Virus record (IMG/VR): IMGVR_UViG_3300022602_000089
Length of the DNA: 64,000 nt
Strand: one strand, 5' to 3'
DNA from: an uncultured virus (IMG/VR IMGVR_UViG_3300022602_000089)
Taxonomy: Duplodnaviria > Heunggongvirae > Uroviricota > Caudoviricetes
Shown piece after piece: positions 47,461 through 63,801 of this stretch; position 1 is the stretch's first letter; each line of letters begins with the position of its first letter. Under the pieces are notes generated by a model. It made no database searches. It worked only from the letters and a program-made list of their open reading frames with translations, and was not told where the DNA came from. The position numbers were made by a program, and so were the translations under genes.

Positions 47461-49331
47461 TCTTCCATTTCTCCATAGTTGTATCCATAGTGGGCTTCAC
47501 AAGCGACAGGTAGTCCATTAGCCCATTTAGGTGGTGTTGACATGATCTCGACGATCCATGCACAAGCCTCGTCTACGTCATCCTCGGGAACAATACACAC
47601 CGCCGCATCATGCACCGTAAGGACAGGGCGATATCTCTCGTTCAGTTTTAACATCTGCTCACCAACAATAATCCTAGCGAGTGCTTGCACTACGTTTTCT
47701 ACAATCGATCCGCCCCACAAACTTATTGGGCCCTTGCGTGATCTATATTGGTATCCGCTAGTAGTTTCATCAGTATTAAGCTTAAGTTCGGGGTAACGGA
47801 TATATAACCCGTTTGGTAGCTGTATACCATCGCTATACACTTTCACACATCTATTTTTGCCGTAGTAAAAAGGCTTAGTGTTTTTATCCCAATCAGCCAA
47901 AGTCTTCAGCATCCTATCGCCTTCACGCCATAGCTTCACAATCATGTCGTTAGTTTCTCTGTATAGACTAACTATTTCCACACACTTATCTTCTGTGAGG
48001 TCAGCCCCAGGGGGACTTGTCTTTAGCGTGTGCTGTAACTTTAATGCGCCAGTCCCATAACCTAATCCTAAAATGCAAGTTTTACCTACGAACCTTTCAA
48101 CAGGATTTTTCTTAGTGATGTGCTGGTCATATATTTTTGATGCAAACTCTGAGTAAACATCTTCGCCTTTGGCAAATGACTCAACCAAATCATCTTGCCC
48201 TGATAGCCATGCAAGCACCCTAGCTTCAATCTGTGATGAGTCGCAGTTAATAACAACATAACCTTCAGGCGCACATATTGCGTTCTTTAAAGTCTTTTTC
48301 TTTTTGTCACGGCTAGGTAAATTTTGAAAATTAACTTTGTCTGAACCCGCCCATCTACCTGTGTGCGTACCATAATACTTAAGCGGGATGGGTAGTTCAT
48401 GTCTATTCCTAGCACCAATATCTATGAACCTTTGAATCCTACTTTCTTCAATCGTTGACTTCGTTCCCAAACGCACCGCCGCCAGTTGTTGAACAAAAGG
48501 GTCTTCATGCTCTACTAACGCTATAAACCCTTCATCGTTTTTAGCCAGCGCATATGTGGGTTTACCCGTAGTTTTACTTATCTTCATCGGTGTTTCAACA
48601 TTAAACTCTTTGAGGATGCCAGCAAACTGTTTATTACTAGCCAAGCGTTTACGCACCGCTTCTTCATTATCGCAGTCTAGTTTTTCTTTGAGTGTGCCTA
48701 ATAACTGTAACTTCTCATGCTTAAGTTCTTCTAATCTTTCTTCCAATAAATCGTAGTTGGCTCTTAGGATAGGATGAATAAACATTCTTAGTGTCATATC
48801 GATCAGATTTAATTCTTCTTCAGGGAACGCACTAGACAATACTTGGAAAAGTTTAAAAGTTAACTCCACATCGTTTTTGCAATACTCGCCATATTGGGCT
48901 AACTCAGTAGGATTGAAACCAGTTATTTGCTTGCCTTTAGCATCAACTACCTCTGTGCCTTTCTTCCCTAAAGAATATCTTTCTGCAAGGTAAGCTAGTG
49001 ATCCGCCCACATCAACACCATTAGTAGCCCGACCCATACACAAAGTATCAAGGTACATCTTAGGAGTAATACCAAATTTCCATTTAAGGATTGCACCATC
49101 AAACATTGTGTTGTGGCAAAGTAATGCACTGTCATTCCACGGGAACGTGGAAAGGTAATTACGGACTTCGATGTGTGAACCAGAAAACCATTCAACAATA
49201 CCGTCATTAACTTTAACCGCAACTCCGATTACCTCAAAGCGTTTGTCCCTGATATATTCTTCAGTAGTGAGTTTTGTTAATGAGTAGTCTTTAGAATAAT
49301 AGGTCTCAAAGTCCAACGTAATTAGATTCAT
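47439..49331 (-). CDS. polA: Family A DNA polymerase with 3'-5' exonuclease
   Basis: Exonuclease LDFET, HN..FD and YC.ND; TGRW; motif A DSSQIEAR; motif B RFVGKTCILGLGYG; motif C VHD. Confidence 0.95.
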   Translation of the reverse strand: MNLITLDFETYYSKDYSLTKLTTEEYIRDKRFEVIGVAVKVNDGIVEWFSGSHIEVRNYLSTFPWNDSALLCHNTMFDGAILKWKFGITPKMYLDTLCMGRATNGVDVGGSLAYLAERYSLGKKGTEVVDAKGKQITGFNPTELAQYGEYCKNDVELTFKLFQVLSSAFPEEELNLIDMTLRMFIHPILRANYDLLEERLEELKHEKLQLLGTLKEKLDCDNEEAVRKRLASNKQFAGILKEFNVETPMKISKTTGKPTYALAKNDEGFIALVEHEDPFVQQLAAVRLGTKSTIEESRIQRFIDIGARNRHELPIPLKYYGTHTGRWAGSDKVNFQNLPSRDKKKKTLKNAICAPEGYVVINCDSSQIEARVLAWLSGQDDLVESFAKGEDVYSEFASKIYDQHITKKNPVERFVGKTCILGLGYGTGALKLQHTLKTSPPGADLTEDKCVEIVSLYRETNDMIVKLWREGDRMLKTLADWDKNTKPFYYGKNRCVKVYSDGIQLPNGLYIRYPELKLNTDETTSGYQYRSRKGPISLWGGSIVENVVQALARIIVGEQMLKLNERYRPVLTVHDAAVCIVPEDDVDEACAWIVEIMSTPPKWANGLPVACEAHYGYNYGEMEEWKPNKG

Positions 49332-49729
49332 TTAAAAATCATTCCTTTTAATGCTCGTAATGCTTCCGCATGTGCATAAATATGCCGACCTGTATTGGCT
49401 AGATCGTTATTGGCTATCGACGAGCGAAGGGGGTACTGTCCACCCATATCCATACCGATCGCTTGATTTAAAAACAACTTTCCCTGCGCACCCGTCGGTT
49501 CGTCCTCTCCTGCTAAATGTTGCATCACACGACCAGTAAAATTCTCTCGGTTTGCTTCACGAATAGCTATAAGAACCGCCTCTTTTTCCGCTTCATTAAA
49601 GTATTCAGCATCTATTATCTCCCTAAGAAAACTTCCCCATTTACTATCGTAAGAGATCGGTGACCCTATTACAAACTCGTCAGGGTGCGTCTTCATACGC
49701 TCTAATATTATTTCTACTCCACCGTTCAT
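49328..49729 (-). CDS. Hypothetical protein, paralog of 51411-51743
   Basis: NGGVEIILERMKTHPDEF versus SNGVNIVLARMDTHPEEF. Confidence 0.7.
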   Translation of the reverse strand: MNGGVEIILERMKTHPDEFVIGSPISYDSKWGSFLREIIDAEYFNEAEKEAVLIAIREANRENFTGRVMQHLAGEDEPTGAQGKLFLNQAIGMDMGGQYPLRSSIANNDLANTGRHIYAHAEALRALKGMIFK

Positions 49730-50007
49730 TTCTCACTTGCCTTTCTTAGTATTGCTCTAGCAAAATCAAACAAATCACCTGTTTCGTAATAAATTGTTTT
49801 TATTTCCTCATTGGTTAATGTCTTTGCTGGATGGGTGTAGAGTGGTACAACACTTCCAACAGGCTCAGTATTTTTTAAAAATATTGGCACATCTTCTTGC
49901 TTAAATAAAAAAGTAGCAGGTTTACCTTCGTAGTACCCAATCCAACCAGCGGGATTTGCGGACTGCTCTATCATTTCTTTCAGCATATCTATGCGTTCTT
50001 GACTCAT
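49726..50007 (-). CDS. Small modular-family protein
   Basis: PLYTHP, LTNEEI and FARAILRKASEK. Confidence 0.7.
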   Translation of the reverse strand: MSQERIDMLKEMIEQSANPAGWIGYYEGKPATFLFKQEDVPIFLKNTEPVGSVVPLYTHPAKTLTNEEIKTIYYETGDLFDFARAILRKASEK

Positions 50008-50282
50008 TTCTCTTGTGCCTTTCTTAGTATTGCCAAGTCTCTTGCAACCAAAAACTCATTTAAACGGTCTTGTAATTGTTCTATTTCAGCTTCTAATGCT
50101 ACGGCTCTTCGATGTTGTTCTTCCGCAAAGTTTTGAATAAATCTATTTGCGTTTTTTAAATCTTCTATTTCTTGGGCTTGTTGACGTAGCAAAGGTGCTA
50201 CAAATTGTAGTGTTTCCCAACCAATTGATGTATGGTTTTGGTTCATTTGCTCAAGCCTGTTAATTAGGTCATTTAAAGTCAT
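50004..50282 (-). CDS. Small modular-family protein
   Basis: MTLNDL, LRQQAQEIE and AILRKAQEK. Confidence 0.7.
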   Translation of the reverse strand: MTLNDLINRLEQMNQNHTSIGWETLQFVAPLLRQQAQEIEDLKNANRFIQNFAEEQHRRAVALEAEIEQLQDRLNEFLVARDLAILRKAQEK

Positions 50283-50896
50283 TCCCCCCTCGCTTTCTTT
50301 ATTTCACGATATTGTTTTAGTTTTACTTTTACATTTAAAATTCTAAGGATTGCTCTTTCAATTGTGTCATTCCATTGCGATGGGTCATAATCAGGTTCAG
50401 CAGGTGCAATTAACTCTTGAACTTCTTTTATACATAAATCAATTATTTCCTCATCAGTAAGTTCACGCATTGGGTGGTCATACAATGCAGTATAGTTAGG
50501 ATGTTTTAGTGCATCAGAACTACAGGTTGTAGTAAACTCAGGTTTATCAAAACCATCAATTTTTACCATCATGGCAACAGGCTTTTGATTAAAGAATGGC
50601 TTGGTGTAAAGAAACTCTCCCTTCTCTCTCGTTTGCCAATCGCTCCCTGAGCCTGAGTCAATATACATATATCCATATCCATCAAAGTCATAACGCATTG
50701 CCACTGGTTCAATTGGGTGTGATTGGGTGTCAGAATGGGTGATGGCTAATTGCTTTAAATACAACTGACGAGTTTCTTCTAAGCGTTCTTTTAACTCTTC
50801 AATTTCTTTGGCTTGTTGACGTAGCATGGCAGAAACTTGTTTACTTTGAGCACAACAAGACCATTCATTTAAATCTGCTAGTTCATTTGCGGTCAT
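50279..50896 (-). CDS. Modular-family protein
   Basis: MTANELAD, MLRQQAKEIE, two PVAM..LY modules, LTDEEI. Confidence 0.7.
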   Translation of the reverse strand: MTANELADLNEWSCCAQSKQVSAMLRQQAKEIEELKERLEETRQLYLKQLAITHSDTQSHPIEPVAMRYDFDGYGYMYIDSGSGSDWQTREKGEFLYTKPFFNQKPVAMMVKIDGFDKPEFTTTCSSDALKHPNYTALYDHPMRELTDEEIIDLCIKEVQELIAPAEPDYDPSQWNDTIERAILRILNVKVKLKQYREIKKARGE

Positions 50897-51210
50897 TTCT
50901 CACTCGCTTTCTTTATAAGGTCTTTAACCTCACCCATTGATTTTTTAATATGGGCATCGTAGGCTCGTTCCATCATTTCAATCTTTTCTTTATATGGTTT
51001 CAACACTTCTATTTCTTCTTTCAACAAACTAATTTCTTCTCGTAATACACCAATCATATGTCCTGCTTCAGTCAATTCAGCTTCTTGTTGGCGTAGCATA
51101 ATGGCTGATTCTCGGTAAAGAATAATAGCCCTACCTGCTTGCTCAGTTTCTTTACCCAATAATCTAATACTTACACTTTCTAACTTATCTATTAATTCAT
51201 TTGCTGTCAT
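50893..51210 (-). CDS. Small modular-family protein
   Basis: MTANELID, MLRQQEAE and IKKASEK. Confidence 0.7.
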   Translation of the reverse strand: MTANELIDKLESVSIRLLGKETEQAGRAIILYRESAIMLRQQEAELTEAGHMIGVLREEISLLKEEIEVLKPYKEKIEMMERAYDAHIKKSMGEVKDLIKKASEK

Positions 51211-51374
51211 TTCTCAATCCCCTTCTTGCCTTCATAAGCACGTTGGCTCTGTCTGTTTAAACAATGTATGCACTTCCAAATCCTTACCTTTCTGTTCGAT
51301 GTATTCACCAATGAAACTTCACTTGCTGGTCGATATTGTGTACACGCAGAACAGTATTTTTTATCCTCACTCAT
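51207..51374 (-). CDS. 55-aa zinc-finger protein (not in the ORF track)
   Basis: MSEDKKYCSACTQYR...WKCIHCLNR...GIEK; two CxxC; ATGA coupling. Confidence 0.7.
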   Translation of the reverse strand: MSEDKKYCSACTQYRPASEVSLVNTSNRKVRIWKCIHCLNRQSQRAYEGKKGIEK

Positions 51375-51812: not shown

Positions 51813-51818
51813 TATAAA

Positions 51819-52642: not shown

Positions 52643-53071
52643 TTACTTCTCCAAGTTAAAAACTGCACGATTTAAATACCATTGGGCTTTCTTTAGGTTC
52701 TCTAATCTATCCCCTTTATGGTCTGCCCTAGTAATATATTTGACGACGTTACCGAGATGGTAGTCTAACTGTTTCGCTTCGATGAAGTCGATAGTCTCAA
52801 TGCCACCTGTTGTATAGTGCGGTGGGTGGTTGATGTTATCGTTTGTAAAAACTTCATGCAAATGAATCTCGCCATTATCACGAATTTGTATGAGGGGCAT
52901 TTCATTTAAAGTTCCACTACGTTGTGGAGTCTTGTTTAAGTTTCTTATCTTAGACATAATCGTATAGACATAACCAATTTCAATCTTCAACTTCTTAGCT
53001 ATCTCAGGGGCTTTTATATTAGGTCGTTCTTGCATTAACTTCTTTACTGCTTCGGTTTTACTAACTTTCAT
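52643..53071 (-). CDS. HTH plus DUF3310 (SaV-like) protein
   Basis: EIAKKL...YVY HTH; INHPPHY..GGIE.ID, GNVVKY..R and LKKA.WYL motifs. Confidence 0.85.
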   Translation of the reverse strand: MKVSKTEAVKKLMQERPNIKAPEIAKKLKIEIGYVYTIMSKIRNLNKTPQRSGTLNEMPLIQIRDNGEIHLHEVFTNDNINHPPHYTTGGIETIDFIEAKQLDYHLGNVVKYITRADHKGDRLENLKKAQWYLNRAVFNLEK

Positions 53072-53288: not shown

Positions 53289-53594
53289 TTAGCATCTCCC
53301 ATCATCTATATCATTAAATAAACCATCTAGCATCGTGTCAATATTATTCTCATCGACCACAACTGCCGTTCCACCATTACGTTGAATGTTCTTCATGTGT
53401 TCAGCCTGTAATGCCGTAGGCTTATTCCCATTAGATTTACACTCTATGCCGTAAAACTTTCCTTGATAACAAACAAGTATGTCAGGCACACCATTCGCAC
53501 CATATCCAGCGGTAAACGGCATTGTGTAATAGATTCCTCTAGCGGCTAAATAGTCTTTAACTTTCTTCTTTACTTTAGCTTCAGGTGTTGCCAT
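53289..53594 (-). CDS. VRR-NUC nuclease
   Basis: PE..VK, GVPD, IECK and PT.LQ motifs. Confidence 0.9.
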   Translation of the reverse strand: MATPEAKVKKKVKDYLAARGIYYTMPFTAGYGANGVPDILVCYQGKFYGIECKSNGNKPTALQAEHMKNIQRNGGTAVVVDENNIDTMLDGLFNDIDDGRC

Positions 53595-54000: not shown

Positions 54001-54908
54001 ACAAAGTCATACACGCTTGGGTGGGCATTATTTATTTGGATGATATCAAGGTCATTTAACAGTCCACTATGGGGTGGAATTAAATTTGCGTGGTATATAG
54101 TATGTCGCCCTTGTTGCTCGTGATATACCTTCTGCATAAGCATGATGGGTTGTAAGTGTTCGTGTTTGTATAAGTTTTTAACTCTAACAAACGGTTCAAC
54201 TATATTAAATTTAAACCCCGACACATCATCTCCAATATGTTTAATTTTACCTACAACTAATTGTCCAAACCCATCAGCACCAATAGCATAAAAGCCACCA
54301 CCAAAAAATCTTTTTATGTCTGCTTTTGCAGTTTCTTTTATTTTATCTAGTTTATTATATTTGTCAAGTATTGTTTTACATTCAGCTAAAATATTTAACT
54401 CAGTAGTTTCCCCTAGTGCATACTTTAATAAGGTGTGTACTTTGTCTACACTTAACGCATCGTCCTTATAAGAACGACCGTGTGAACTTTCTAATGTATG
54501 TACTGCACTAAAAAATGATGCTCTGTAAAAGTGTAAAATTTGTTCTTCATTAGGTATGATGCTATTACGCTTGATTGTTGCTATCAATGTAGATAACTTC
54601 TTACTAAAGAAAGTTTCTTTATCTTCTCTGCTATGCCCTCTATCCTTAATGAAGTAAGGCGAACGAAAATAATATGTTAGGTTTTTACCTGTATCCTCAG
54701 TCCACGCTCTCGCCACCACAAATGTGCCTGTTGCATCGGTAAGAACAATCTCCTGTGGTCGTCGGGTATACATCTCGCCTTTCTGTTCTAACGCTAATAC
54801 TTTTAGCCCAAACTTAAAATTTAGTTCGTATATTAATTTCTTTACTGGTGTGCTTTCAATAGCGTCTATAACATATTGCTCAGTTAATCCATCGATTGCG
54901 TATTTCAT
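53967..54908 (-). CDS. Hypothetical protein
   Basis: 313 aa; SD AAGGAG. Confidence 0.75.
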   Translation of the reverse strand: MKYAIDGLTEQYVIDAIESTPVKKLIYELNFKFGLKVLALEQKGEMYTRRPQEIVLTDATGTFVVARAWTEDTGKNLTYYFRSPYFIKDRGHSREDKETFFSKKLSTLIATIKRNSIIPNEEQILHFYRASFFSAVHTLESSHGRSYKDDALSVDKVHTLLKYALGETTELNILAECKTILDKYNKLDKIKETAKADIKRFFGGGFYAIGADGFGQLVVGKIKHIGDDVSGFKFNIVEPFVRVKNLYKHEHLQPIMLMQKVYHEQQGRHTIYHANLIPPHSGLLNDLDIIQINNAHPSVYDFVWTFVPCLPTL

Positions 54909-55259: not shown

Positions 55260-56303
55260 TTAATATTGTTCAACTTCTTTGCCGTCAACTGTGATAGTCA
55301 AACCCCACTCGCTTTGAGGGAAACGCTTACCCATCGTATACTCTACAGGTTTCATCACCTCGTCATGCCGTTTGTATAATTCTTTATTCAGCTTACGTTT
55401 AATACTAGAGTAAATATACATCGGGTCAATCTCCGCATTTCCATACGCACTTGCATACCCATTATCTAAGGTAGATGATCTTACACGACGATACATATTG
55501 CCAATATCATGTGCGACTGCAAATGCCAACGCTGAGTCTAGTGGTGCTACGTTGATATTCTTGTCTGCCCATGCGATCATATTATCTTTAGTTTCTTTAC
55601 TCAGATAAAAGTTAATTAGTTCATCTTGGTTTGCTAATGACTTTACAGTATCTACCGCAGTATCCATTAGCGTTTTCCAATCTATTGTTTTAAACATTAC
55701 CTCGTTGATTTTATAAAAATCTGCATACTTACTAAGAAACTGCTTCGCATCTTTACGATTGACACGCTTACCAGTTACCTTATAGATAGAAGATTCATGG
55801 GGCATCATAGTATCTAAGTTAACCCGCATACCTTTGAAGATTGGGTGAAAAATATCATTCATTCCTTCCTTATATACCATTCCACCATAACGTGAACTGC
55901 GAAAGAACCATCCTCTACTCCATCTACTCATCAATATATTATCTCCTTGCCCATAGTATTCGCTTGTAAATTCAAACGTGTTGTCTGAACGAATAATACC
56001 TAATTCACGAGGAAAATGAATATAGCTTACATACTTTTTGGTTTCATCTTTTTCCCAATCACGCAGAAAAATATTTTGTTTTTTATTGTTTTGGTCTTTT
56101 TTATATTCTTCCTCTGTGCGGAAAACTTCTTGGTATCTGTAACCATACGTCACAACATAAACAGTTTCATCACCTCGTTCTTCAACATAAAAACATTTAG
56201 TATTATGTTTCCTATCCGCAATTGGATATCTATTTGTTGTGCCACGATACGGCATTTGAGTATTTTTAATCTCGGTAAGTCTATCCCAATGTAATGCTCT
56301 CAT
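55260..56303 (-). CDS. Hypothetical protein
   Basis: 347 aa; SD AAGGAG. Confidence 0.75.
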   Translation of the reverse strand: MRALHWDRLTEIKNTQMPYRGTTNRYPIADRKHNTKCFYVEERGDETVYVVTYGYRYQEVFRTEEEYKKDQNNKKQNIFLRDWEKDETKKYVSYIHFPRELGIIRSDNTFEFTSEYYGQGDNILMSRWSRGWFFRSSRYGGMVYKEGMNDIFHPIFKGMRVNLDTMMPHESSIYKVTGKRVNRKDAKQFLSKYADFYKINEVMFKTIDWKTLMDTAVDTVKSLANQDELINFYLSKETKDNMIAWADKNINVAPLDSALAFAVAHDIGNMYRRVRSSTLDNGYASAYGNAEIDPMYIYSSIKRKLNKELYKRHDEVMKPVEYTMGKRFPQSEWGLTITVDGKEVEQY

Positions 56304-56304
56304 T

Positions 56305-56517
56305 TCACTTCTCCTTGTCTAATAAAGTTAATACTGCTTTCCATAGGTTTACTTCTTCTTTACTACTATTCTCGTTAACTACTCTCTCCAACGCATAGAT
56401 GTGTGCCATGTCCCCATGCGTTTGTATCAACAACTCTGCTATGTCGTGCGAAAATTTAGGATTACTCGCATCAGTGCTATACCATTTTTCATACCGTTTT
56501 TCTTTTTCATCAGTCAT
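56305..56517 (-). CDS. Hypothetical protein
   Basis: Overlaps the VWA gene end. Confidence 0.6.
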   Translation of the reverse strand: MTDEKEKRYEKWYSTDASNPKFSHDIAELLIQTHGDMAHIYALERVVNENSSKEEVNLWKAVLTLLDKEK

Positions 56518-57793
56518 CCTTTACCATGACTTTCTTACCTGATGGGACTTGTAATGATTTATTCTCAGTAATCATCCACAGGGTAGGGGAAGCGATTGTC
56601 CACTCGATATCATTTTCCACATATCCGTCAGTAAACACGATGACACATTCTGCGTTAATCTTCTTCTGATTGATGTACTTGTTTACACATGAGACCCTAG
56701 TACCGCCACCGCCTAATGGTTTCAATAGCGATGCAATATCTTGGTAATGTTCAGGTTTAAAGTATTGTTCACCATGCACATCGTAATCCCACCATATAAC
56801 TCTTACCGCTTCGGGCGACACCACTTCTACAATCGAAGCCAGTTCCGTAGCAAATTCAGTCAATTCTTTGATACCGATTGAACCTGATGTATCTATCGCA
56901 ACTACTACCTCACCGATTGATTCGTTCTCCATGCTTGGTAAGTAAATGTCATTAGCCATGTGACGCTTATTCATCTTGCGCCATGTGTATTCATCGTTCC
57001 CCTTAGTAGTGGAAGCAACAAATTCTCGCAACACTTCTCGCCAATCTATCTTCGGCTCAAGCAAGTCACTAATCTGTCTAGGCATCTTGCCACCCATGCG
57101 ACCAGCCAACATACCGCCTTCACGCAAAGCCCTATCGATCTTGTCACCCAGCTCTTTACGTTCGTCATCGCTTAGACCTTCAACATACGATTCCCAGTCA
57201 TGCTCATCGAACCCATCGCCACTCATGTCATACTCTTTGCCATTGGCTTTGATCTTGCCATCTCCCGTTCCACCCCCCTGTGGATTGTTAGGCTTACCAC
57301 TTGATCCACTTGGTTGTTTTTGTCGTTGAGGGTTCTCCTTACGGATATAGTTATAGACCTCACGCATCGACCAATTATGAAAGAACGGATCGTACAATGC
57401 ACCATCAGGTAGTTCAACGATAGCCTCGTTACTGTTTGCTATTCTTCCTTTAATATTCTTTATAATGTCATTCACTACAAAGTCCGCCGCCATGTTGGAT
57501 ATCTGCTTATCTTCCTTAAACATATCCTTCCCTCTTGGAATCTGTTTTAATGCAACGTGCAAATTCTCATGCAATACTAAGCCACGCAACTTTGCTTCTT
57601 CTTTGATTTCCTCTATGAATGGTTTAGAATATCTCTTGTTCATGCCATCGGTATAAGCCGTAAACTCTTTATCGATTACTTCGGACTTACCCATCAACAT
57701 CACACCGCTATACAACGCAGTATCGTTGTGTTTCATTAAAGCGATATGTGCTTTCTTCAACCGTATTTCTTGTTTGTGCATCGTCATATCCAT
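56510..57793 (-). CDS. Metallopeptidase-VWA protein (DUF2201-like)
   Basis: TAYTDG, LHENLH, N.AAD..VN, MIDAS DTSGS, GGGGT and FTDG; ATG at 57793 follows SD AGGAG. Confidence 0.85.
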   Translation of the reverse strand: MDMTMHKQEIRLKKAHIALMKHNDTALYSGVMLMGKSEVIDKEFTAYTDGMNKRYSKPFIEEIKEEAKLRGLVLHENLHVALKQIPRGKDMFKEDKQISNMAADFVVNDIIKNIKGRIANSNEAIVELPDGALYDPFFHNWSMREVYNYIRKENPQRQKQPSGSSGKPNNPQGGGTGDGKIKANGKEYDMSGDGFDEHDWESYVEGLSDDERKELGDKIDRALREGGMLAGRMGGKMPRQISDLLEPKIDWREVLREFVASTTKGNDEYTWRKMNKRHMANDIYLPSMENESIGEVVVAIDTSGSIGIKELTEFATELASIVEVVSPEAVRVIWWDYDVHGEQYFKPEHYQDIASLLKPLGGGGTRVSCVNKYINQKKINAECVIVFTDGYVENDIEWTIASPTLWMITENKSLQVPSGKKVMVKDD

Positions 57794-57794
57794 G

Positions 57795-57989
57795 TCACTT
57801 CTCCTGTACAATGATTTCAATAGAGTCGCCGTTGTCAACGACTCTTGCCCTACCGTCTGCTACTTGTTTCAGCCTGAATACTGTAAACTGTTTGAACTCC
57901 TCTGCCTTGTATAATGCCCTTTGCCATAAGACAGTCATAACTATCCCCCATATTATTAAAACTATTTCGCTTGGTGTTATCGTAATCAT
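57795..57989 (-). CDS. Small membrane protein
   Basis: SD AAGGAG; single hydrophobic segment. Confidence 0.6.
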   Translation of the reverse strand: MITITPSEIVLIIWGIVMTVLWQRALYKAEEFKQFTVFRLKQVADGRARVVDNGDSIEIIVQEK

Positions 57990-58000
57990 TCTTCTTCTCC

Positions 58001-59074
58001 TTAAAATAATTCATGGTTGTTCTTAGCCCACTCTGCGATAGTCGCATTGTTTCTAGCCAGCTTAATTGCCTTCGCATTACGCATCATCATAGTAAAGAAT
58101 ACGGCTTGGACTTCTGAACTAGGAATCTTATTAACGAACTGCATAAATTTAGTCAACTCGTCTTGCGTATCCAACACATCTACTGCTTGAAACATAATCA
58201 TTAACTGTGCAGATATCTCGTCAGGTATTTTTACTGACTCTGGAGCTTTGATAATGTCTTTCACATCGATTAGTGTTTTCTCTAGTGATAAGAAAGCCGA
58301 CATATCAGCAGATGCAGATTGACCGATAGTGCCAGCCAATGCGACCATCGTAGCGTTCTCACCTAAGATATCTCTATGCTTCACAATCACATCGCACTTT
58401 GCTAAGGAACGAGGAGAGCAGAATGATAATGAAGTCATGTTAGGTTTAAAAATGTATGGGTTATCATCTTGATTACCTTCTCTGTATGATGCAAGGACTC
58501 TTGGGAACAACGCAACGAAAGCACGAACAACACGAGAAACACCATTAGCCGATGCCCATTGAAGCCAGTCATTTGCATTTGGTTTACTCATTTCAATCTT
58601 ACATACACGATTACCAGCATGGGCTAACATCGAATCGCCTACACCGTCTGACGCATTGTTTGATGTAGCGAAAACCATGCTTCCACTAGGTAGTGGACGA
58701 TCACCTACCATTCTTTCCAACATCAAGCGAGTAAAGATTACTTGCAATAACTTTGGTGCTTTCATAAACTCATCGAGTAGAATAACTTTAGGTCTTGGAT
58801 CATTGAGGCAGAACAGCGAGGACACATAATATTCTAATGTCTGAGTAGCATGGTTCGGGATTGTCATACCTATGTCTGACATATCTTTTACGGGACAGTC
58901 AACATAGATGTATTGGTAGGCATCGCCAAGATCAGATTCAATCATTTTTAATAGGCTAGTCTTACCGCAACCTGGCTCGCTTGTTATAACAACTGTCAGG
59001 TCTTTACTTACTACGGGAATTAATGTTCTTAGTTCATTGATAGATACTGTTGGGATAAAATTCAGCTTACTCAT
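58001..59074 (-). CDS. MoxR-like AAA+ ATPase
   Basis: PGCGKT, LLDEF, ATSN, NR and SPRS motifs; next to the VWA gene. Confidence 0.85.
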   Translation of the reverse strand: MSKLNFIPTVSINELRTLIPVVSKDLTVVITSEPGCGKTSLLKMIESDLGDAYQYIYVDCPVKDMSDIGMTIPNHATQTLEYYVSSLFCLNDPRPKVILLDEFMKAPKLLQVIFTRLMLERMVGDRPLPSGSMVFATSNNASDGVGDSMLAHAGNRVCKIEMSKPNANDWLQWASANGVSRVVRAFVALFPRVLASYREGNQDDNPYIFKPNMTSLSFCSPRSLAKCDVIVKHRDILGENATMVALAGTIGQSASADMSAFLSLEKTLIDVKDIIKAPESVKIPDEISAQLMIMFQAVDVLDTQDELTKFMQFVNKIPSSEVQAVFFTMMMRNAKAIKLARNNATIAEWAKNNHELF

Positions 59075-59142
59075 TTACTTCTCCTTGTGTATAAAAAATT
59101 AAAAAACTTATGTACGTCACCATGACGTGTATAAAAACTGCA

Positions 59143-60120
59143 TTACTGCATACAACTAAACCCACCAAACCTCGATAAAATATCATCGATCCCTTCCTTG
59201 ACGTTCGACCGCACAGCATCGCTGTCTCGGATGTCCTCTGCACTTACACCGTCTAGGACTTTCTCTAGCGATGCCCTTGCTTGTTCTAGCTCGCTATCAT
59301 GTTTGAGATTAAACACTTTGAAACTGTCACACATATCTAATGCTTTCTGTACAGTCGTGTCGTATATCTTCCTACGCTTGGTTTTCATCTGACCTGTTTT
59401 ATCTAAGCCAATATCGTCAGCACCGCAACAATGAGAGATACTCTGCATTACATCGATAAGCCTTCTACTCTGTTCTTTTGCGATGCTCTCGATAATGTCG
59501 GAACTTTGCTTACTCAATGTCGTAAATAAATCCTCAGCGATATCCTTCGCTATGCCACAACGAAAGTCATTTGTAGGAACTTCTGACACATACAACTGCA
59601 CGTTGAACTTCGATGCAATCTGTTCTCTCGGTGGATAGTCCGCACGGTTAAACATAGTACCTTGCTTGAAAGCCATGTCCGATACGATTGAGTCATAGTC
59701 CATGACTAATGAATCCACTAATTGATGGAACGCTAACTCATGCTCGTGATACTCTTGTTTGAACTTCGGCACATCGATTGATGGTAATAACTGCTGTGAT
59801 TGATTCCACTTGTAAGTCCTACGTTGAAGCCAGTTATAGATAGTCTGCCTGTAATTCACCACCGCTTTGTGCTTGGGATGATTAGCCAATAGATTCTTAA
59901 CATACCTACCCGCACTTTTGTCTGCATTGTGTGACATAGTAACTTCATCGCTGATACCACGATCTTGTTTAGTAGCTGACCATACGCTGATATCCACGCT
60001 GACCAACACCGCACTACTCGCCAATGAGATTAAATGCTCAGGCATCTCTAGGTTTAATTTAGTTTGCTCTACTTCTTCTTGATCGGCAAGGTCTTGCCAT
60101 TCTTCTAAATGTCTGCTCAT
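59143..60120 (-). CDS. DUF3150-like protein
   Basis: W.A.K.D, K.L and F...DYP motifs; ATG at 60120 after GGGAG; precedes the AAA-VWA pair. Confidence 0.55.
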   Translation of the reverse strand: MSRHLEEWQDLADQEEVEQTKLNLEMPEHLISLASSAVLVSVDISVWSATKQDRGISDEVTMSHNADKSAGRYVKNLLANHPKHKAVVNYRQTIYNWLQRRTYKWNQSQQLLPSIDVPKFKQEYHEHELAFHQLVDSLVMDYDSIVSDMAFKQGTMFNRADYPPREQIASKFNVQLYVSEVPTNDFRCGIAKDIAEDLFTTLSKQSSDIIESIAKEQSRRLIDVMQSISHCCGADDIGLDKTGQMKTKRRKIYDTTVQKALDMCDSFKVFNLKHDSELEQARASLEKVLDGVSAEDIRDSDAVRSNVKEGIDDILSRFGGFSCMQ

Positions 60121-60255
60121 GCTACTCTCCCTATAAATAAATCCACTATGACGTGGAACGCTATATAAAAAATACTTAATACTAAAAACAGCCATATAAA
60201 CCACTCTGACTTTTTCATCATTACCCCCCTGTTAAATTTGTTTCCCTACTAATCA

Positions 60256-60303
60256 TTAGTATAACATAACTTTACATTTAAACATAGTGTCTGCGTAAAG
60301 TAT
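60256..60303 (-). promoter_or_regulatory. Early promoter element, copy 1
   Basis: Extended -10 TGtTATACT; ~48-bp similarity to 61901-61948. Confidence 0.65.
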
Positions 60304-60316
60304 TTTATGTAAGAAC

Positions 60317-60496
60317 TCATAGGGAATACTCATGTGCTTGGATTACGACCTCATAGCCTAATTGTTTAATTGTGTATATATCCGTTTTAGTTAGCGTAGT
60401 GTGTCTTGCTAACTCTGCTAACAGCTTTGCCGTTTCGCACTTCGGATAGATCATCTCGTTACCATAGACGTTGCGTCTCTCAACTATGATCTTCAT
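60317..60496 (-). CDS. Small phage protein
   Basis: MKIIVERRNVYGNEMIYP.C...IKQLGY; ATGA coupling. Confidence 0.65.
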   Translation of the reverse strand: MKIIVERRNVYGNEMIYPKCETAKLLAELARHTTLTKTDIYTIKQLGYEVVIQAHEYSL

Positions 60497-60975
60497 AGCC
60501 AGTCCGTTACTATCTGACGAGATGTATATGCCCAGTCCCAATCACCAGTCCCTATTCGCATTTCATCGACATCGTCTAAGTTCTCGCCTAGCCTCACAAA
60601 GACAGCACCTATGTATGGATTAGGATTATCCTTATTGTTAGCCCACTCATCTGCTAGGCTAAATAAACTGTTATGGCACTTAACGTCAAGGAAGTCGGGA
60701 TACCATTTCACATAATCGGCATAGAAGTTAATCTGTAAGTTCTCCTCGTCTATCCGCAGTCCTTCAACCCTCGATCTAAATTCCGATTCCACTAACTCGT
60801 TGAAGCATGGTCGGGTTTCTTCCTTCATTTTCGCTTCCGCTAAGAATGTATAGAATGACTCTCTGCACTTAGCTAGATCAGCTTCTTCTGCATCGCCTTG
60901 TTTCTCGCCACTTGCAACTTGGCTTGCTGTAATAAAGCGTATTGTGTACGCAACCTCAGAACGGTATCCCATCAT
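60493..60975 (-). CDS. Hypothetical phage protein
   Basis: MGYRSEV, VKWY and FVRLGE..DD motifs. Confidence 0.75.
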   Translation of the reverse strand: MMGYRSEVAYTIRFITASQVASGEKQGDAEEADLAKCRESFYTFLAEAKMKEETRPCFNELVESEFRSRVEGLRIDEENLQINFYADYVKWYPDFLDVKCHNSLFSLADEWANNKDNPNPYIGAVFVRLGENLDDVDEMRIGTGDWDWAYTSRQIVTDWL

Positions 60976-61202
60976 TCACCCCCTAAATATTTTTTAACTA
61001 GATCGATAGCATCGATTGGACACTCGGCACTTAGAACCATTGTCCGTTCAACTCCATTCACAACGTAATTAACTTCATGCAATACTCGTGGCTTAGAATC
61101 ATCCTTCTCTATAGCCCTCGCTTGGAAGTATTCAGCTTTCATTTGTGCATCCTTTCTCTCCTCAATCTCATGCTTCAGGTGTTGTGCAAATGTTTTACTC
61201 AT
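60972..61202 (-). CDS. Hypothetical protein
   Basis: SD AAGGAG; ATGA coupling. Confidence 0.65.
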   Translation of the reverse strand: MSKTFAQHLKHEIEERKDAQMKAEYFQARAIEKDDSKPRVLHEVNYVVNGVERTMVLSAECPIDAIDLVKKYLGGE

Positions 61203-61353
61203 GGTGCTTCTCCTTTTTCGGTTGTGGTGTTAATAAATAGAAATACGGATTGCTTGACCTGACTGCCTCGATCTTATCCTTGAACGGTTTATCGCTTAGG
61301 ATTACATTAAGCAACGAGAAGTCATCTTGTTTTTTGATTTTAGTTGTTCGCAT
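61195..61353 (-). CDS. 52-aa hypothetical protein (not in the ORF track)
   Basis: MRTTKIKKQDDFSLLNVILSD...KEKHHE fills the gap in the operon. Confidence 0.5.
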   Translation of the reverse strand: MRTTKIKKQDDFSLLNVILSDKPFKDKIEAVRSSNPYFYLLTPQPKKEKHHE

Positions 61354-61382
61354 TTATTTCCCTTTCTTTTCTAGTTCGCTTA

Positions 61383-61604
61383 TCATGTTGTCCTCTTAGG
61401 GTTAAGTTGTTTTAGCTGAGTCAGGTCTGTAATCAGCATATAGTTTGATTTGTTGATAGGTGCAATAGTGTACTTTTTTGACTTGAGATGTGCAACCTCA
61501 TCACCGCAATCTAAGCATAATAAGATTCCTATGCGATAGCGTTGTTCACTATATGTATCACCACACAATTTGCATTGTGGCATAAAAGTTTCATCAACCA
61601 TCAC
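61383..61604 (-). CDS. Zinc-finger protein
   Basis: CKLC...CLDC; P.NKSNY and LNPK. Confidence 0.75.
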   Translation of the reverse strand: MMVDETFMPQCKLCGDTYSEQRYRIGILLCLDCGDEVAHLKSKKYTIAPINKSNYMLITDLTQLKQLNPKRTT

Positions 61605-61801
61605 TCACCCCTCCCGTATTTGTTCTCAAAGAAATCCAACCAGTCCTCGAACTCTTTTTCATACTGCTGTATTGCTTGCTCTGTGTTTTCGAGTCCACTA
61701 AGATGTGGATTGAGATGTGGATTGGACAATTTAAATTCAGAATCTAATTGCTCCCATGCTTGCTCTTGTTCTTCCATTAACATAGCTTTAACTCTACCCA
61801 T
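61601..61801 (-). CDS. Small acidic protein
   Basis: SD AGGAG; MGRVK start; NPHL twice. Confidence 0.65.
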   Translation of the reverse strand: MGRVKAMLMEEQEQAWEQLDSEFKLSNPHLNPHLSGLENTEQAIQQYEKEFEDWLDFFENKYGRGE

Positions 61802-61900
61802 GATTACTCTCCTAATTGATAAGTGATTCCACGTTTGCGTGGATTGTTAAATAAGTTTTACTGCTGGACAACAACGAAAAACGACTGCCTTACTACACTA

Positions 61901-61948
61901 TTAGTATAACATAACTTGACATATAAACAAAGTGTTTCAGTAAAGTAG
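61901..61948 (-). promoter_or_regulatory. Early promoter element, copy 2
   Basis: TTGTTT-16 nt-TATACT with extended TG; near-identical to 60256-60303. Confidence 0.65.
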
Positions 61949-62013
61949 TTAATAGCTAACAAGCGTAATACGGCAGTCGAGGGGTAAGGGTTGGATTGGT
62001 GGGGTAGGTCGGC

Positions 62014-62352
62014 TTATCTCTGTTTGTGGAAACTCTTACGTCTGAACAGGACTTCATCTCTGTCACCGTTTGCATAGCGTAGGGCTAAAGACTCTTTGCT
62101 GATGCCAGTTATTTCTGCCCATTCTTTTAGTGTATGAGTTTCGGGTTTGGCTTTGGCTTCGAGTTTGTACTCTACGAATATGTTGTAGCTGACTGGTATT
62201 TTATTAGGGATTGGTTTCTCTAGTAATGCTTTACCACGCAATCCTTTTTTCCAACGATGGGATAGGACTTGTATGCTGATGCCACTCTTTTCAGCCCATT
62301 CCTTCATTGTGTGTGATTCGTTTCTAAATCTGTATATCTGCTTCGTAAACAT
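62014..62352 (-). CDS. DNA-binding protein with two tandem HTH-like repeats
   Basis: HTMKEWAEKSGIS..L..R...G and HTLKEWAEITGIS..L..R...G. Confidence 0.7.
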   Translation of the reverse strand: MFTKQIYRFRNESHTMKEWAEKSGISIQVLSHRWKKGLRGKALLEKPIPNKIPVSYNIFVEYKLEAKAKPETHTLKEWAEITGISKESLALRYANGDRDEVLFRRKSFHKQR

Positions 62353-62359
62353 GGATTTT

Positions 62360-62760
62360 CCTCTTTGGTTATGTTCTAGAAAAAATTCTAGTTATTCCAT
62401 TGTATCTTAAAATCTAAGAAGTTTCTAGAATTTTTTTGAGGGGTATTTTAGAGGGGTTAAGTTATTGATTTTATTGTATTATTATTATTATTATTTAATA
62501 GATAGTAGTAGTAGTAGTAAGAAAATTCTAAATTCTACGGTTTTTAAAAAGGATATACCTTATGGCGATGTTTTTTTATTGACGATATTACACTCTCTGC
62601 CACATTGTCGTTCTGTGCAAAAAACGCAATTTAGTAGGTATCCCCCTAAAATCGTTTAGAATTTTAGAACTTTTTTACAGAGTTTAATTAAATCAACAAG
62701 TTACAAGCGAAAAAAATTCTTCAGTTTTCAGGAAATTCTAAATCGTTTTTGGAATTTTTC
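62360..62760. other. AT-rich non-coding region, candidate replication origin
   Basis: Repeated AATTCTA/TAGAA motifs in both orientations, (TAT)n and (TAG)n tracts, IHF-consensus sites at 62458-62470 (-) and 62691-62703 (+). Confidence 0.5.
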
Positions 62761-62801
62761 AATTCCACTAGTAAGTGGATCGTTATTTAAGGTCTTGTCT
62801 G

Positions 62802-62868
62802 TCATTTAGAATAAAATTAAATGATGCAACGTATAAATCTGGCTATCATTTAGAATAAAATTAAATGA
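62802..62868. repeat. 23-bp direct repeat, 2 copies, each a palindrome
   Basis: TCATTTAGAATAAAATTAAATGA at 62802-62824 and 62846-62868. Confidence 0.9.
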
Positions 62869-62916
62869 CACACTCACGCACTCAAGGATATGTAACTGGT
62901 TTCAATTTGACAGGCG

Positions 62917-62949
62917 AAAAAAAACCTGATATGCTATCGCATATCAGGT
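62917..62949 (-). terminator. Rho-independent terminator
   Basis: 11-bp stem ACCTGATATGC/GCATATCAGGT followed by T-run, just after the 62959 stop. Confidence 0.85.
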
Positions 62950-62958
62950 CTAAAAATA

Positions 62959-63600
62959 TTACTTAAGCCATACTAGATTAAACGCTTTGATCGATTGTTT
63001 TAACTTATCAAGATCAGCAGTTATATCGTCACGTTTTTTGGCACTTCCGCAACGTGCGATCAAACCCGTTTTGCCGTCATTGAATACAGCGTCAACGACT
63101 TCTGTAAAATCTTTTACAGCAGTTCTAGCATTTTCCTTCCCTTCGTTTTGAATCCGTCTTGCTTCCCGCTTGAGATCGTTAATGCGATTACTGCAATACG
63201 TTTGGACTTCCTTCCTGATCTGTTTGACAATCGGGTACATATACGGTTCAGTTTCTTTTAACTTACCAAACACTTGCTGATTAAAGCTAAAGGCAAAATC
63301 AACGCCTATTAGTTTCTTATTACTTGCTTCCTTTAGGTTATTACTATCATTAACCAACAAGTACTTATCATCAATTACAGCGTATTGCTTCGGCGGATTA
63401 TTCTCACTAAAACGTAAACGATAGCCCTCGTTTAACTGCTCAAGAGCTTCTTTCGGTATATCTTCGGGGAAGCCTACTACATTGGATAAACAATATCGAG
63501 CAACCGATTTGACAGTATCTCCTGCCCGAGCTTGTTTATATGCACCATCTTTTAATGATGTAATTACTTCGTTTTGTGTTGCAATATTTTTTGTAGCCAT
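62959..63600 (-). CDS. Hypothetical early protein
   Basis: 213 aa, SD AAGGA, own terminator. Confidence 0.8.
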   Translation of the reverse strand: MATKNIATQNEVITSLKDGAYKQARAGDTVKSVARYCLSNVVGFPEDIPKEALEQLNEGYRLRFSENNPPKQYAVIDDKYLLVNDSNNLKEASNKKLIGVDFAFSFNQQVFGKLKETEPYMYPIVKQIRKEVQTYCSNRINDLKREARRIQNEGKENARTAVKDFTEVVDAVFNDGKTGLIARCGSAKKRDDITADLDKLKQSIKAFNLVWLK

Positions 63601-63801
63601 GATGTTAAATCCTTTATGAAAAGTTAAACTGCTGAAATATGACTAATGAGAATCACTAGCCATGTGTTATATATACCCGATTTCCTAATTAAAAAGCAAG
63701 ATTCCACTAGGTAGTGGATCGTTATTTAAGGTTTTGTGACGCACTATTGCATATCCGCCATGCACACGCACCACACACTCGGCGATGAGTAACTGGTTTC
63801 A

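Follow-up and report, generated by a model that had tools for sequence, protein, structure and literature searches.

The parS/ParB, matS/MatP and SBS/SlmA systems consist of 14-18-bp palindromes that recur across a single chromosomal domain, where dimers bind them; ParABS pairs parS with genes for a ParA ATPase and a ParB CTPase, and MatP acts on matS as a builder of a nucleoprotein domain. Among phages, the c repressor of phiC31 binds conserved inverted repeats, and the nut/boxB antitermination signals and the N4-type hairpin promoters are elements based on hairpins, the latter with a fixed short loop and a virion RNA polymerase. The immunity repressor of Cluster A mycobacteriophages combines an HTH with a stoperator domain, stops elongating transcription and makes lysogens immune to superinfection, in temperate genomes that carry an integrase or parABS. 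The stoperators of these phages (L5 gp71 type) are described as asymmetric sites of 13-14 bp, located on both arms of the genome and recognised by a monomeric protein that has an HTH domain (PMC6550527, PMC9283540). Cluster O mycobacteriophages carry 17-bp dyad repeats of one motif in more than 30 copies genome-wide, with a binder given as unknown; as far as that account goes, its authors judged a transcriptional role unlikely and proposed sites for a dimeric protein (PMC4351075). The PeSLs of T4-type phages are presented as cassettes of promoter and terminator stem-loop that mediate shuffling (PMC2839356).

The window, the whole stretch of DNA analysed here, represents an uncultured aquatic phage (~64 kb) in which TCCAC-N6-GTGGA is repeated across the early genes. 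The array is confirmed as real. Our motif scan reproduces every one of the 10 exact and 6 one-mismatch starts listed in an earlier sequence-only reading, and 100 dinucleotide shuffles give a mean of 0.02 exact copies (maximum 1) versus 10 observed, and of 0.92 copies with at most one mismatch, exact ones included (maximum 4), versus 16; none of the shuffles attains either count. Six exact copies are located within coding sequence, as had been claimed, and these far exceed a codon-preserving control, with 6 exact copies versus 0.09 (maximum 2) and 12 near copies versus 0.97 (maximum 6) in 1000 synonymous-codon shuffles of 29 early genes. The inverted pair appears only at spacer 6 when spacers of 0-20 are scanned, and the sites are evenly spaced, about one per kb. 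They are restricted to the last ~15 kb of the window, the scan finding no copy with up to one mismatch 5' of 49136. The array ends ~190 nt into PolA, and the replication block on the same strand (38984-49100) is free of sites. The features are listed below, gp1 being the product of the first gene behind the first site.

63791..63802, minus strand: TTGAAACCAGTT box ahead of site 1, with a second copy ahead of site 2 at 62894-62905.
63723-63728: upstream box of site 1, TAAATA.
63703..63718: exact site 1, intergenic, 102 nt upstream of the gp1 start codon and 3 nt ahead of the -35-like TTGCTT.
63670..63699, minus strand: putative sigma-70-type gp1 promoter, TTGCTT-18 nt-TATATA, read by eye and under the threshold of the consensus scan.
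62959..63600, minus strand: gp1, 213 aa, candidate site-specific homodimeric DNA-binding protein of an unnamed family (sequence comparison and model).
gp1 residues 122-151: proposed reading helix with R129, K130, T134, Y135, N138 and R139 (co-variation and model).
62922..62951, minus strand: hairpin resembling an intrinsic terminator, 3' of gp1.
62764..62779: exact site 2, intergenic, 3' of gp1, upstream box TAAATA.
62762-62735: TTGAAA-16-TAGAAT, 1 nt behind site 2.
61828..61843: exact intergenic site, 26 nt upstream of the start codon of the 66-aa gene, before its ribosome-binding site, upstream box TATTTA.
61694..61709: exact site within the 66-aa acidic gene.
60788..60803: one-mismatch site within the 160-aa gene, absent from relatives.
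60142..60157: exact intergenic site, ~21 nt upstream of the DUF3150-like ATG, upstream box TATATA; many lineages have a site here.
59714..59729: one-mismatch site within the DUF3150-like gene, at most one mismatch in 8/8 distinct same-motif haplotypes.
58682..58697: exact site at codon 126 of the AAA ATPase gene; 7/7 distinct haplotypes of the same motif have no more than one mismatch, and in other lineages the site is rewritten to their own motif.
57269..57284: exact site, falling in the metallopeptidase/VWA low-complexity linker, where relatives also have a site at a shifting position.
56998..57013: copy with one mismatch inside the VWA gene, conserved in part and lacking a flank box.
56575..56590: copy with one mismatch close to the 3' end of VWA, mostly accounted for by a conserved PTLW peptide and likewise lacking a flank box.
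56510..60120, minus strand: conserved core of the marked block, made up of the genes for the DUF3150-like protein, the AAA ATPase and the metallopeptidase/VWA protein.
55881..55896: one-mismatch site within the 347-aa gene, one mismatch in 5/5 distinct same-motif haplotypes.
54063..54078: exact site close to the 3' end of the 313-aa gene, with both flank boxes; 8/10 distinct haplotypes retain the arms, with varying spacer and amino acids.
53370..53385: site with one mismatch within the VRR-NUC gene, retained by 4/9 distinct haplotypes.
52913..52928: exact site, falling in the DUF3310 linker, where relatives also have a site at a shifting position.
49136..49151: exact site, the last of the array, at PolA codon 61, encoding STxPW in this motif class and KIDW or others elsewhere, upstream box TAATTA.

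The site extends beyond its 16-bp core. A TAnnTA box is located 4 nt away, bringing the whole site to ~36 bp. In the window, the box (scored as nAnnTn) is found upstream of 10/16 sites and downstream of 5/16; across relatives it occurs upstream in 87/133 and downstream in 52/133, against a background of 7.5%. The orientation of the upstream box follows transcription, and the flank box is the only polar part of the site, the core being dyad-symmetric. Spacers vary among copies, and identity is restricted to 10-16 bp. The near copies at 56998 and 56575 may be incidental, since neither has a flank box and their conservation among relatives is partial.

Relatives have palindromes of their own, 14-18 bp long, at corresponding positions, and in five sister lineages the positions are homologous while the cores are rewritten. 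In 22 genomes, 152/152 exact copies lie between the start of the small terminase gene and the first 330 nt of PolA, the pattern of a lineage's own arm-restricted palindrome that the earlier reading had proposed to look for. The suggested selection on in-gene copies at the DNA level is also borne out, as their arms are kept while spacer and amino acids change. A site is found 70-169 nt upstream of the gp1 ATG in 55/75 related loci, followed by a -35-like hexamer at 2-3 nt in 38 of these 55, and the gp1 promoter region of relatives reads TTGACA-17-TAGAAT/TATAAC. The first site is located between a terminator-like hairpin and a promoter. In most lineages, sites cluster directly before ribosome-binding sites and at the promoter; sites also occur at gene junctions of the variable region. 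A CCAGYT core is present 60-330 nt upstream of gp1 in 67/75 related loci, a count made without a chance control. The only early ATPase belongs to the MoxR-like AAA family and adjoins the VWA gene. The linked DUF3150-like gene is on 458 viral contigs, and no relatives of it are found in GTDB genomes; its product gives a weak fold match to phage Dylan (E 0.013), and one sequence comparison with Corndog gp95 gave no support.

Several products had been proposed as the binder, among which the 62959-63600 product, gp1, tracks the motif, while the 62014-62352, 42384-42698 and 52643-53071 products and the giant virion protein do not. Sequence comparison makes gp1 the best candidate on that list. Two phages with different motifs, G054 and G055, are 98% identical in PolA, 98% in AAA, 96% in the helicase and 95% in the 104-aa HTH protein, yet their two gp1 paralogues share only 27/28% identity, compared with 94/94% between G054 and G053, which have the same motif. 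At 80-90% DUF3150-like identity, gp1 identity is 59% in 172 same-core pairs versus 27% in 20 pairs with different cores, and 9/10 control proteins are without such a drop; nearly all pairs that differ in core above 80% come from one clade of five lineages. Moreover, both gp1 paralogues change jointly in the five non-CAC loci that have two. Nevertheless, a first gene that evolves fast could follow lineage on other grounds. All considered, gp1 probably binds DNA.

The other products behave as follows. The 104-aa HTH protein (42384-42698) keeps RM[T/A] in its recognition helix in 18/19 sequences across motif classes, and phages that differ in motif share 95-97% identity in it. The 112-aa protein (62014-62352), which falls in an HNH-associated PHROG, is found in 4/25 records and is missing from three complete same-motif genomes, and the DUF3310 protein retains 87-89% identity where the motif switches. 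The giant virion protein has LPD38 as its sole match and no PDB match.

Residues 130/134/138/139 of gp1, all on one helix, follow arm bases 1/2/4/5. Among 2417 columns in 11 proteins, N138 ranks 1 for arm bases 3-5 (adjusted MI 0.73, 32 lineages), K130 ranks 1 for base 1 and T134 ranks 3 for base 2. N138 is present in 63/67 A4 loci, R139 in 56/63 C5 loci and 0/17 others, K134 in 13/19 T2 loci and 0/58 C2, and E130 in 22/28 C1 loci and 0/48 T1. The rules largely hold in held-out loci too; among held-out gp1 sequences that share less than 85% identity with those used for training, the residue-138 rule holds in 9/9 where applicable, and failures concern the 130/134 rules in L409 and the 130 rule in L429. 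Exceptions are GTCAC arms with G138 (L344), TTCGA with N138 K139 (L252/L255) and N138 R139 without a clear array (L040). Independent motif switches are few, and the tree-aware pairs agree in 2/3, 3/4 and ~5/5 and are never opposite, with no test at p<0.05. In a branch test, single-base columns are led by other proteins, and gp1 leads only for bases 3-5 and 4-5 combined. Part of the residue signal could reflect dimer packing, since residues 138-139 and 142-143 also contact the partner subunit in the model.

The gp1 homodimer is modelled with an ipSAE of 0.80 (best control 0.00), pLDDT of at least 85 and at least 96% of contacts shared between runs; the same ipSAE mark is reached by 20/30 solved pairs and 1/23 solved single chains. 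The earlier idea of region-wide sites for a dimeric protein is supported. The gp1 sequence has no match in Pfam, PHROG or PDB, and its predicted fold has no significant match in three fold searches, although absence from fold lists does not exclude an HTH. No homology is detected between gp1 and phiC31 c (hhalign probability 0.2%), nor a PF25746 match in 5 records; the nearest named Atlas cluster is the phiC31 c family, at a lead-level score of 0.75. The first gene in the CTGAC and GTCG lineages has no significant E-value to the gp1 family. This family comprises 336 clusters at 50% identity, with no cultured member found in the phage collection. The joint change of motif and gp1 residues suggests that these proteins are DNA-binding regulators of a kind not yet described, with a lock-and-key code that can be read.

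The locus resembles Cluster A stoperators in that numerous sites, a few at promoters and most elsewhere, genes included, are assigned to a single phage protein, and in the joint divergence of motif and protein between relatives, both judged here by co-variation; unlike them, as these are described, it has a dyad-symmetric core, a homodimer model without HTH match and sites confined to the pre-replication block, and integrase and par genes are not annotated (PMC6550527, PMC9283540). Cluster O shares the dispersed palindromes with free spacer between and inside genes, its copies being enriched in the non-structural leftward operon (PMC4351075); here, the motif differs from its 17-bp repeat and varies from lineage to lineage, the block limits are strict, the sites have flank boxes, and the candidate binder shows a residue-base pattern. 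Similar to phiC31, whose c protein (683 aa) is annotated in its record as 'repressor of lytic genes' and for which we count 15 exact TACTCA-N2 copies from 1225 to 41033, there are ~15 palindromic sites of a putative phage repressor, some in genes. Unlike phiC31, which integrates and has sites on both arms, the sites are in one block and gp1 is not homologous to c. In contrast to the parS/ParB, matS/MatP and SBS/SlmA systems, the sites favour promoter and ribosome-binding-site positions, ParA/ParB are not annotated, and gp1 matches none of these folds in the three fold searches, which is weak evidence.

We favour, by a small measure, a reading based on sequence and model in which the palindromes are operators of gp1 in an autoregulated multi-operator repressor network, stoperator- or phiC31-like and with an unrelated protein. 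Each gp1 subunit would align its long helix (122-151) with one arm of 5 bp, so that the inner bases are read by residues 138/139 and the outer ones by 134/130, and the dimer would additionally prefer the TAnnTA flanks, covering ~36 bp in total. Expressed first, from a host sigma-70-type promoter, accumulating gp1 would cover the -35/upstream region of its own promoter and then fill 10-15 more sites, directly before ribosome-binding sites and in genes. The pre-replication block would be damped as one unit through promoter occlusion and stoperator-like roadblocks, sparing the replication and virion genes. Among silencing, coating and DNA handling, silencing is the best fit to the layout, and the effect of gp1 is slightly more likely than not to be repressive. 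The RNA data consist solely of short contigs. A need for lysogenic silencing is not evident, since integrase, ParA and CI are not annotated among 82 ORFs compared with PHROGs and 42 with Pfam (~435 nt of the genome lie beyond the window). Protein and sites would diverge together, so that close kin would not share control.

The fixed gap of 2-3 nt to the -35 hexamer (38/55 loci) fits activation as well; gp1 would then sit in a class II-like position at its own promoter, recruit the RNA polymerase of the host and drive delayed-early transcription from the other sites. The transcription-oriented upstream box and the oriented imperfect palindromes of some lineages (L433, L173) speak for this reading, which we consider unlikely, as many intergenic sites end 16-45 nt upstream of a start codon, without room for -35, -10 and leader, many conserved sites are mid-gene, and the T of the box is one position off the sigma-70 TAnnnT and mirrored on the downstream side. 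About equally improbable is a nucleoprotein domain built by gp1 on the presumed first-entering 13-15 kb (for DNA pull-in, anchoring, compaction or shielding), with secondary effects on transcription. Even spacing, in-gene copies, the sharp block boundary adjoining the small terminase and a footprint suggestive of bending or wrapping would suit such a domain, but the gathering of sites before ribosome-binding sites and at the promoter in most lineages would be superfluous for a coat, and the giant virion protein shows no link with the motif. Some loci break the residue rules and the protein comparison covered only part of the small variable ORFs, which leaves a rather slim chance that a host factor or an uncompared phage protein reads the sites and gp1 is merely a fast-diverging host-interaction gene; different palindromes in phages 98% identical in PolA and AAA are hard to fit to one host factor, and the co-varying residues occupy one helix face in base order, with both paralogues changing jointly.

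A constant upstream box, a lineage-specific stem and a first-gene product recall boxA/boxB/N, and 41/89 spacers lengthen the stem by one pair, the loop being otherwise free. An element acting as RNA or single-strand hairpin (nut/boxB-like antitermination, a processing site or an N4-type hairpin promoter), read by gp1 or a polymerase, is nonetheless very unlikely: sense-strand G-U-compatible changes do not exceed their mirror images in intergenic one-mismatch copies (27 versus 40; 52 versus 33 in genes), the arm sequence is fixed beyond pairing alone while the loop is free, the first site lies between terminator-like hairpin and promoter, the box is mirrored on both sides, and profile and PDB sequence matches reveal no RNA polymerase in the giant virion protein. 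Recombination or cassette shuffling at the repeats, with their spread a by-product of gene exchange, hardly seems credible. Sites do occur at gene junctions of the variable region, published accounts of Cluster O and of PeSLs describe recombination at repeats, and PeSLs are likewise repeated regulatory elements between variable early genes, albeit presented, as far as that account goes, without a dedicated sequence-specific binder or in-gene copies (PMC4351075, PMC2839356). Here, however, spacers differ and identity spans only 10-16 bp, conserved mid-gene copies cost amino-acid changes, and no recombinase is annotated in the same PHROG and Pfam comparisons, which also give no ParB.

Dispersed early-region palindromes are known from Cluster O, described without a binder (PMC4351075), and our analysis names a candidate binder, a helix face and residue-to-base predictions, which make the question testable with one protein and a few oligonucleotides. 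We tentatively envisage, as a joint and rather less than even proposition, that gp1 has a DNA-binding fold of a new kind, in which one long helix reads a half-site of 5 bp through a near-linear code (130, 134, 138, 139 to bases 1, 2, 4, 5), and that an abundant, apparently non-integrating aquatic phage clade claims a 13-15-kb domain in this way. Lineages would re-key the protein and all sites together, which may allow co-infecting phages to tell kin apart or exclude one another without lysogeny and may amount to a natural library of orthogonal protein-DNA pairs. If the operator reading is true, gp1 would represent a new class of phage regulator and a source of orthogonal repressor-operator pairs, and its family would preserve a natural record of a protein and a dozen scattered sites switching specificity together.

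The palindrome array is real, under selection and clade-wide, and is carried by a protein family without a name. In the window, a motif scan recovers ten exact copies of TCCAC-N6-GTGGA and 16 copies at ≤1 mismatch, at every position that the sequence-only reading had given for its ten exact and six one-mismatch copies, against means of 0.02 exact and 0.92 near copies in 100 dinucleotide shuffles. Coding sequences hold six exact copies, as that reading had counted, and 12 near copies, where 1000 synonymous-codon shuffles give 0.09 and 0.97. The TCCAC/GTGGA inverted pair arises only at a spacer of 6 nt, and no other 5-bp gapped palindrome exceeds four copies in the window. At 31220-31320, 12-nt tandem repeats starting TCCAC encode PQPG/PQAA repeats in the 883-aa virion gene; these have no GTGGA partner and are unrelated to the array.

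The window covers most of a tailed phage of ~64 kb, and the nearest record, which spans the junction, implies an end-to-start gap of ~435 nt. Its main features are as follows.

468-38987, plus strand: terminase, portal, head, tail and large virion proteins
62959-63600, minus strand: gp1, the 213-aa product of the first early gene
59143-60120, minus strand: DUF3150-like early protein (353-aa; fold match E 1.8e-16)
Minus strand, early order: small early genes, DUF3150-like gene, MoxR-like AAA ATPase, metallopeptidase/VWA gene, VRR-NUC, DUF3310
Minus strand after DUF3310, in transcription order: PolA, exonuclease, helicase, 104-aa HTH protein (HTH-104), primase

No integrase, ParA/B or CI is annotated in the window. 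Cultured phages match it only distantly (AAA ≤28% identity), with no match for gp1 or the DUF3150-like protein, and a prophage search of GTDB genomes found no relative of the latter, which gives only generic helical-bundle matches in the PDB. The DUF3150-like, AAA ATPase and VWA genes form the most stable unit of the marked block. The 2241-aa protein encoded at 32262-38987 has an LPD38 domain and is a probable ejected protein, whose middle and N-terminal parts are swapped among relatives independently of the motif. After gp1, ~550 nt at 62353-62900 contain no convincing gene; this AT-rich stretch has TAT/AGT runs and repeats the words TTCTAGAA/AAAATTCTAAA. Relatives likewise have a long non-coding gap at the matching place, and the window's segment is possibly an origin. 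Between the early-arm start and the small terminase gene, past the window end, lie hairpins and C-rich tracts made of ACCCCACCCCC repeats (L102:14330-14800, record G001). GGGGG-N7-CCCCC hairpins recur there in relatives, and the tracts and hairpins of that record are possibly genome-end or packaging signals.

Related phages carry palindromes of their own in the same arm, the outcome that the sequence-only reading had proposed to look for. Among 80 loci collected by the AAA protein, 66 have at least two exact copies of one gapped palindrome and fall into 12 motifs (TCCAC-N6, CCCAC-N6, GTCGW-N6, CTGAC-N5, GGACA-N2, ATCGG-N6, CCTAG-N6, TCCGT-N6, CTGTC-N5, GTACA-N4, GGACT-N4 and GTGTG-N5); the other 14 lie outside this rule, several of them having weaker arrays on re-inspection. 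Across 22 genomes that are long or complete, the local motif has 152 exact copies, every one of them in the 303 kb that run from the small terminase start to 330 nt into PolA, and the remaining 954 kb contain none; only this zero is an independent result, because for about half of these genomes the early region itself served to define the motif. In most lineages the sites are intergenic, commonly 16-45 nt ahead of a start codon, and one site precedes the first long early gene. Moreover, five sister lineages have sites at matching places with the core rewritten. Seven loci (L433, L445, L173, L474, L409, L265 and L271) have imperfect palindromes with the same sense-strand asymmetry at most sites (TCCAC..ATGGA; AAGTG..CAATT), so that the array can be polar. 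A higher-GC relative (L040/L506), whose gp1 has N138 and R139, has no clear array and a single TCAG-N6-CTGA-like site before the promoter. No array was found within the 46.3 kb of Rollin examined.

Judged from same-motif relatives, the in-gene copies are kept at the level of DNA, as had been suspected. The site stays within one mismatch in all distinct haplotypes for the AAA (7/7), PolA (6/6), DUF3150-like (8/8) and 347-aa (5/5) genes, and in 8 of 10 for the 313-aa gene, where the arms are constant while the spacer and its amino acids vary. Other lineages show 2-8 mismatches at the AAA and PolA positions, and PolA reads STxPW at the site in this motif class and KIDW or similar in others. The copies at 60788, 56998, 56575, 53370 and 52913 are only partially retained at the exact position. 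In addition, the base preferences around the arms indicate that the site is longer than its palindromic core. Across 89 TCCAC sites read in the sense orientation, the core has a TAnnTA box 4 nt upstream of it (key positions A 82%, T 81%), with a weaker mirror image on the downstream side. Scored as nAnnTn (background 7.5%), the box is present upstream in 87 and downstream in 52 of 133 sites of the CAC class, including 28 and 22 of its 44 in-gene sites. It is weaker in other 16-bp lineages (27/62 upstream, 21/62 downstream), and weak or absent at that register in 17-18-bp lineages.

Among the candidate binders that had been put forward, gp1 follows the motif, whereas HTH-104, the 112-aa HNH-associated protein, DUF3310 and the giant virion protein do not; nor do a 69-aa protein, a zinc-finger protein and the 883-aa virion protein. 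A gene of 190-320 aa stands behind the first site in every lineage inspected. A gp1 profile joins most of these first genes, reaching the TGTGTG, CCTAG and GTGGGA lineages; those of the CTGAC and GTCG lineages are not joined to the family at a significant E-value. Particularly, genomes G054 and G055, which differ in motif, share 95-98% identity in PolA (98%), AAA (98%), helicase (96%) and HTH-104 (95%) and only 27-28% in their gp1 paralogues, while G054 and G053, with the same motif, share 94% in gp1. At 80-90% DUF3150-like identity, in pairs that stem mostly from one clade, gp1 identity falls from 59% where the two share a core to 27% where they do not, and VRR-NUC is the only one of ten control proteins to drop (61 vs 52). 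This co-variation with one protein, which the sequence-only reading had proposed to check, was counted over 81 of 89 non-redundant loci, leaving aside L040, L173, L174, L224, L265, L271 and L344 (weak automatic motif calls) and L077 (odd length) and retaining, with hand labels, the weak calls L157, L296 and L336 as well as L162. The window has one gp1 copy; 32 related loci (e.g. L005, L075, L144, L315) have two tandem paralogues, far apart in sequence and with residues 138/139 in common, which could form heterodimers or divide the labour.

The co-variation shows a residue-base pattern on the predicted long helix 122-151 of gp1 (pLDDT 87 overall). Among 2417 columns in 11 proteins, the top rank goes to N138 for arm bases 3-5 and to K130 for base 1, and T134 comes third for base 2; at base 5 a VWA column outranks N138 and R139. 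N138 is found in 63 of 67 loci with A4 and 2 of 13 others, R139 in 56 of 63 with C5 and 0 of 17 others, K134 in 13 of 19 with T2 and 0 of 58 with C2, and E130 in 22 of 28 with C1 and 0 of 48 with T1. D138 occurs with G4 and E138 with T4, and in CAG arms G5 is accompanied by C or A at 139; wherever a non-CAC locus has two copies (five loci), both paralogues switch together. These directions fit the textbook contacts of Asn with adenine, Arg with guanine and Asp with cytosine. R129, Y135 and R159 are near-invariant across 150 homologues, as would be expected of backbone or minor-groove contacts. Tree-aware independent pairs, few in number (best p 0.0625), agree in direction in 2/3, 3/4 and ~5/5 cases with none opposite. 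In a branch test over 2173 columns, the eight highest-ranked for bases 3-5 all belong to gp1, which is not in the lead for single bases. Exceptions to the residue rules are L344, L252/L255 and L040. Eleven held-out gp1 sets have <85% identity to the training set, and nine of them (L400, L401, L409, L419, L429, L433, L445, L452 and L504) obey the residue-138 rule; L474 has a residue pair without a usable rule and L440 no scorable array. The 130 rule fails in L409 and L429, and the 134 rule in L409. L429, with 25% identity to its nearest training protein, combines T138 K139 with a TGT core, as does the unrelated L305.

Structure prediction supports, at the level of a model, binding of gp1 as a dimer. 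Modelled together, two copies give a symmetric dimer (ipSAE 0.80, best control 0.00; pLDDT ≥85, contact agreement ≥96%), a mark that 20 of 30 solved pairs reach, against 1 of 23 solved single chains. In this model the interface includes residues 138-139 and 142-143, with 130/134 away from it, which agrees with reading inner and outer bases respectively; packing could explain part of the co-variation. gp1 has no significant match in Pfam, PHROG, PDB sequences or by fold (best E 0.77 in Foldseek PDB and 0.35 in BFVD; best VIA Z 6.0, over 76 residues), in searches with the model undivided into domains, which are therefore not proof of a new fold.

The gp1 ATG has a site 70-169 nt ahead of it in 55 of 75 loci, and in 38 of these 55 a -35-like hexamer begins 2-3 nt past it; single promoter calls are weak because a sigma-70 consensus scan is no higher than chance (46 found vs 56.6 in shuffles). 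Two lake metatranscriptomes gave small shares and short contigs only, uninformative on starts, ends and levels. A TTGA[A/T]ACCAGTT box at 62894-62905 and 63791-63802 stands after terminator-like hairpins and ahead of both a GCGTG-rich tract and the first palindrome; it is constant in many relatives while the palindrome changes, and CCAGYT occurs 60-330 nt before gp1 in 67 of 75 loci (raw count, chance level not set). Two identical extended -10-like elements (TTATGTTATACT, minus strand; 60258-60269 and 61903-61914) each lie 60-100 nt upstream of a palindrome, and similar text precedes the DUF3150-like gene in relatives.

We favour, at somewhat better than even probability, gp1 as an autoregulated repressor. 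Its 36-bp footprint would cover the -35-like hexamer of its own promoter, and gp1 on further sites would damp the pre-replication block by occlusion and roadblock. This reading is preferred because of that coverage, because the other intergenic sites are too near start codons to be activator sites of downstream promoters, and because many conserved sites lie mid-gene. The last two points count against activation by gp1, which is unlikely, about as much so as a nucleoprotein domain serving DNA entry, anchoring or protection. That a protein other than gp1 binds the sites is rather less probable. An RNA or hairpin signal is very improbable; sense-strand G-U pairs are not in excess among the one-mismatch copies between genes (27 vs 40), which points to duplex DNA. 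Least probable of all are recombination sites.

Beside known systems, the array parallels the dyad sites of phiC31, which are bound by the c repressor; we counted 15 of them, spread over both arms. The literature searched, with most subscription papers outside its scope, held nothing relevant on phiC31 operators and no published description of a system such as the present one. gp1 as a phiC31 c homologue (Atlas score 0.75) failed in a homology comparison. The array may work like the Cluster A stoperators, 20-30 oriented asymmetric sites for a monomeric repressor (PMC6550527; PMC9283540), and looks like the Cluster O dyad repeats, described there without a known binder (PMC4351075). By the features tested, it belongs to none of the three. 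The DUF3150-like protein has a weak fold match to a protein of Cluster O phage Dylan (E 0.013); one sequence comparison gave no support for a Cluster O link through it.

The cultured Rhizobium phage RHph_TM27A (L082, MN988461.1 11000-60894) has AAA and metallopeptidase genes and 22 exact copies of TTACC-N6-GGTAA, structural genes included; no gp1-like ORF was found in the 49.9 kb examined. It offers a cultured system where such arrays could be studied. The swap of gp1 together with all sites between near-identical phages resembles the divergence of immunity types. Lysogeny is not evident, and the selective force is therefore put forward tentatively: it may be kin exclusion or, in co-infection or a carrier state, a way to escape the repressors of kin.
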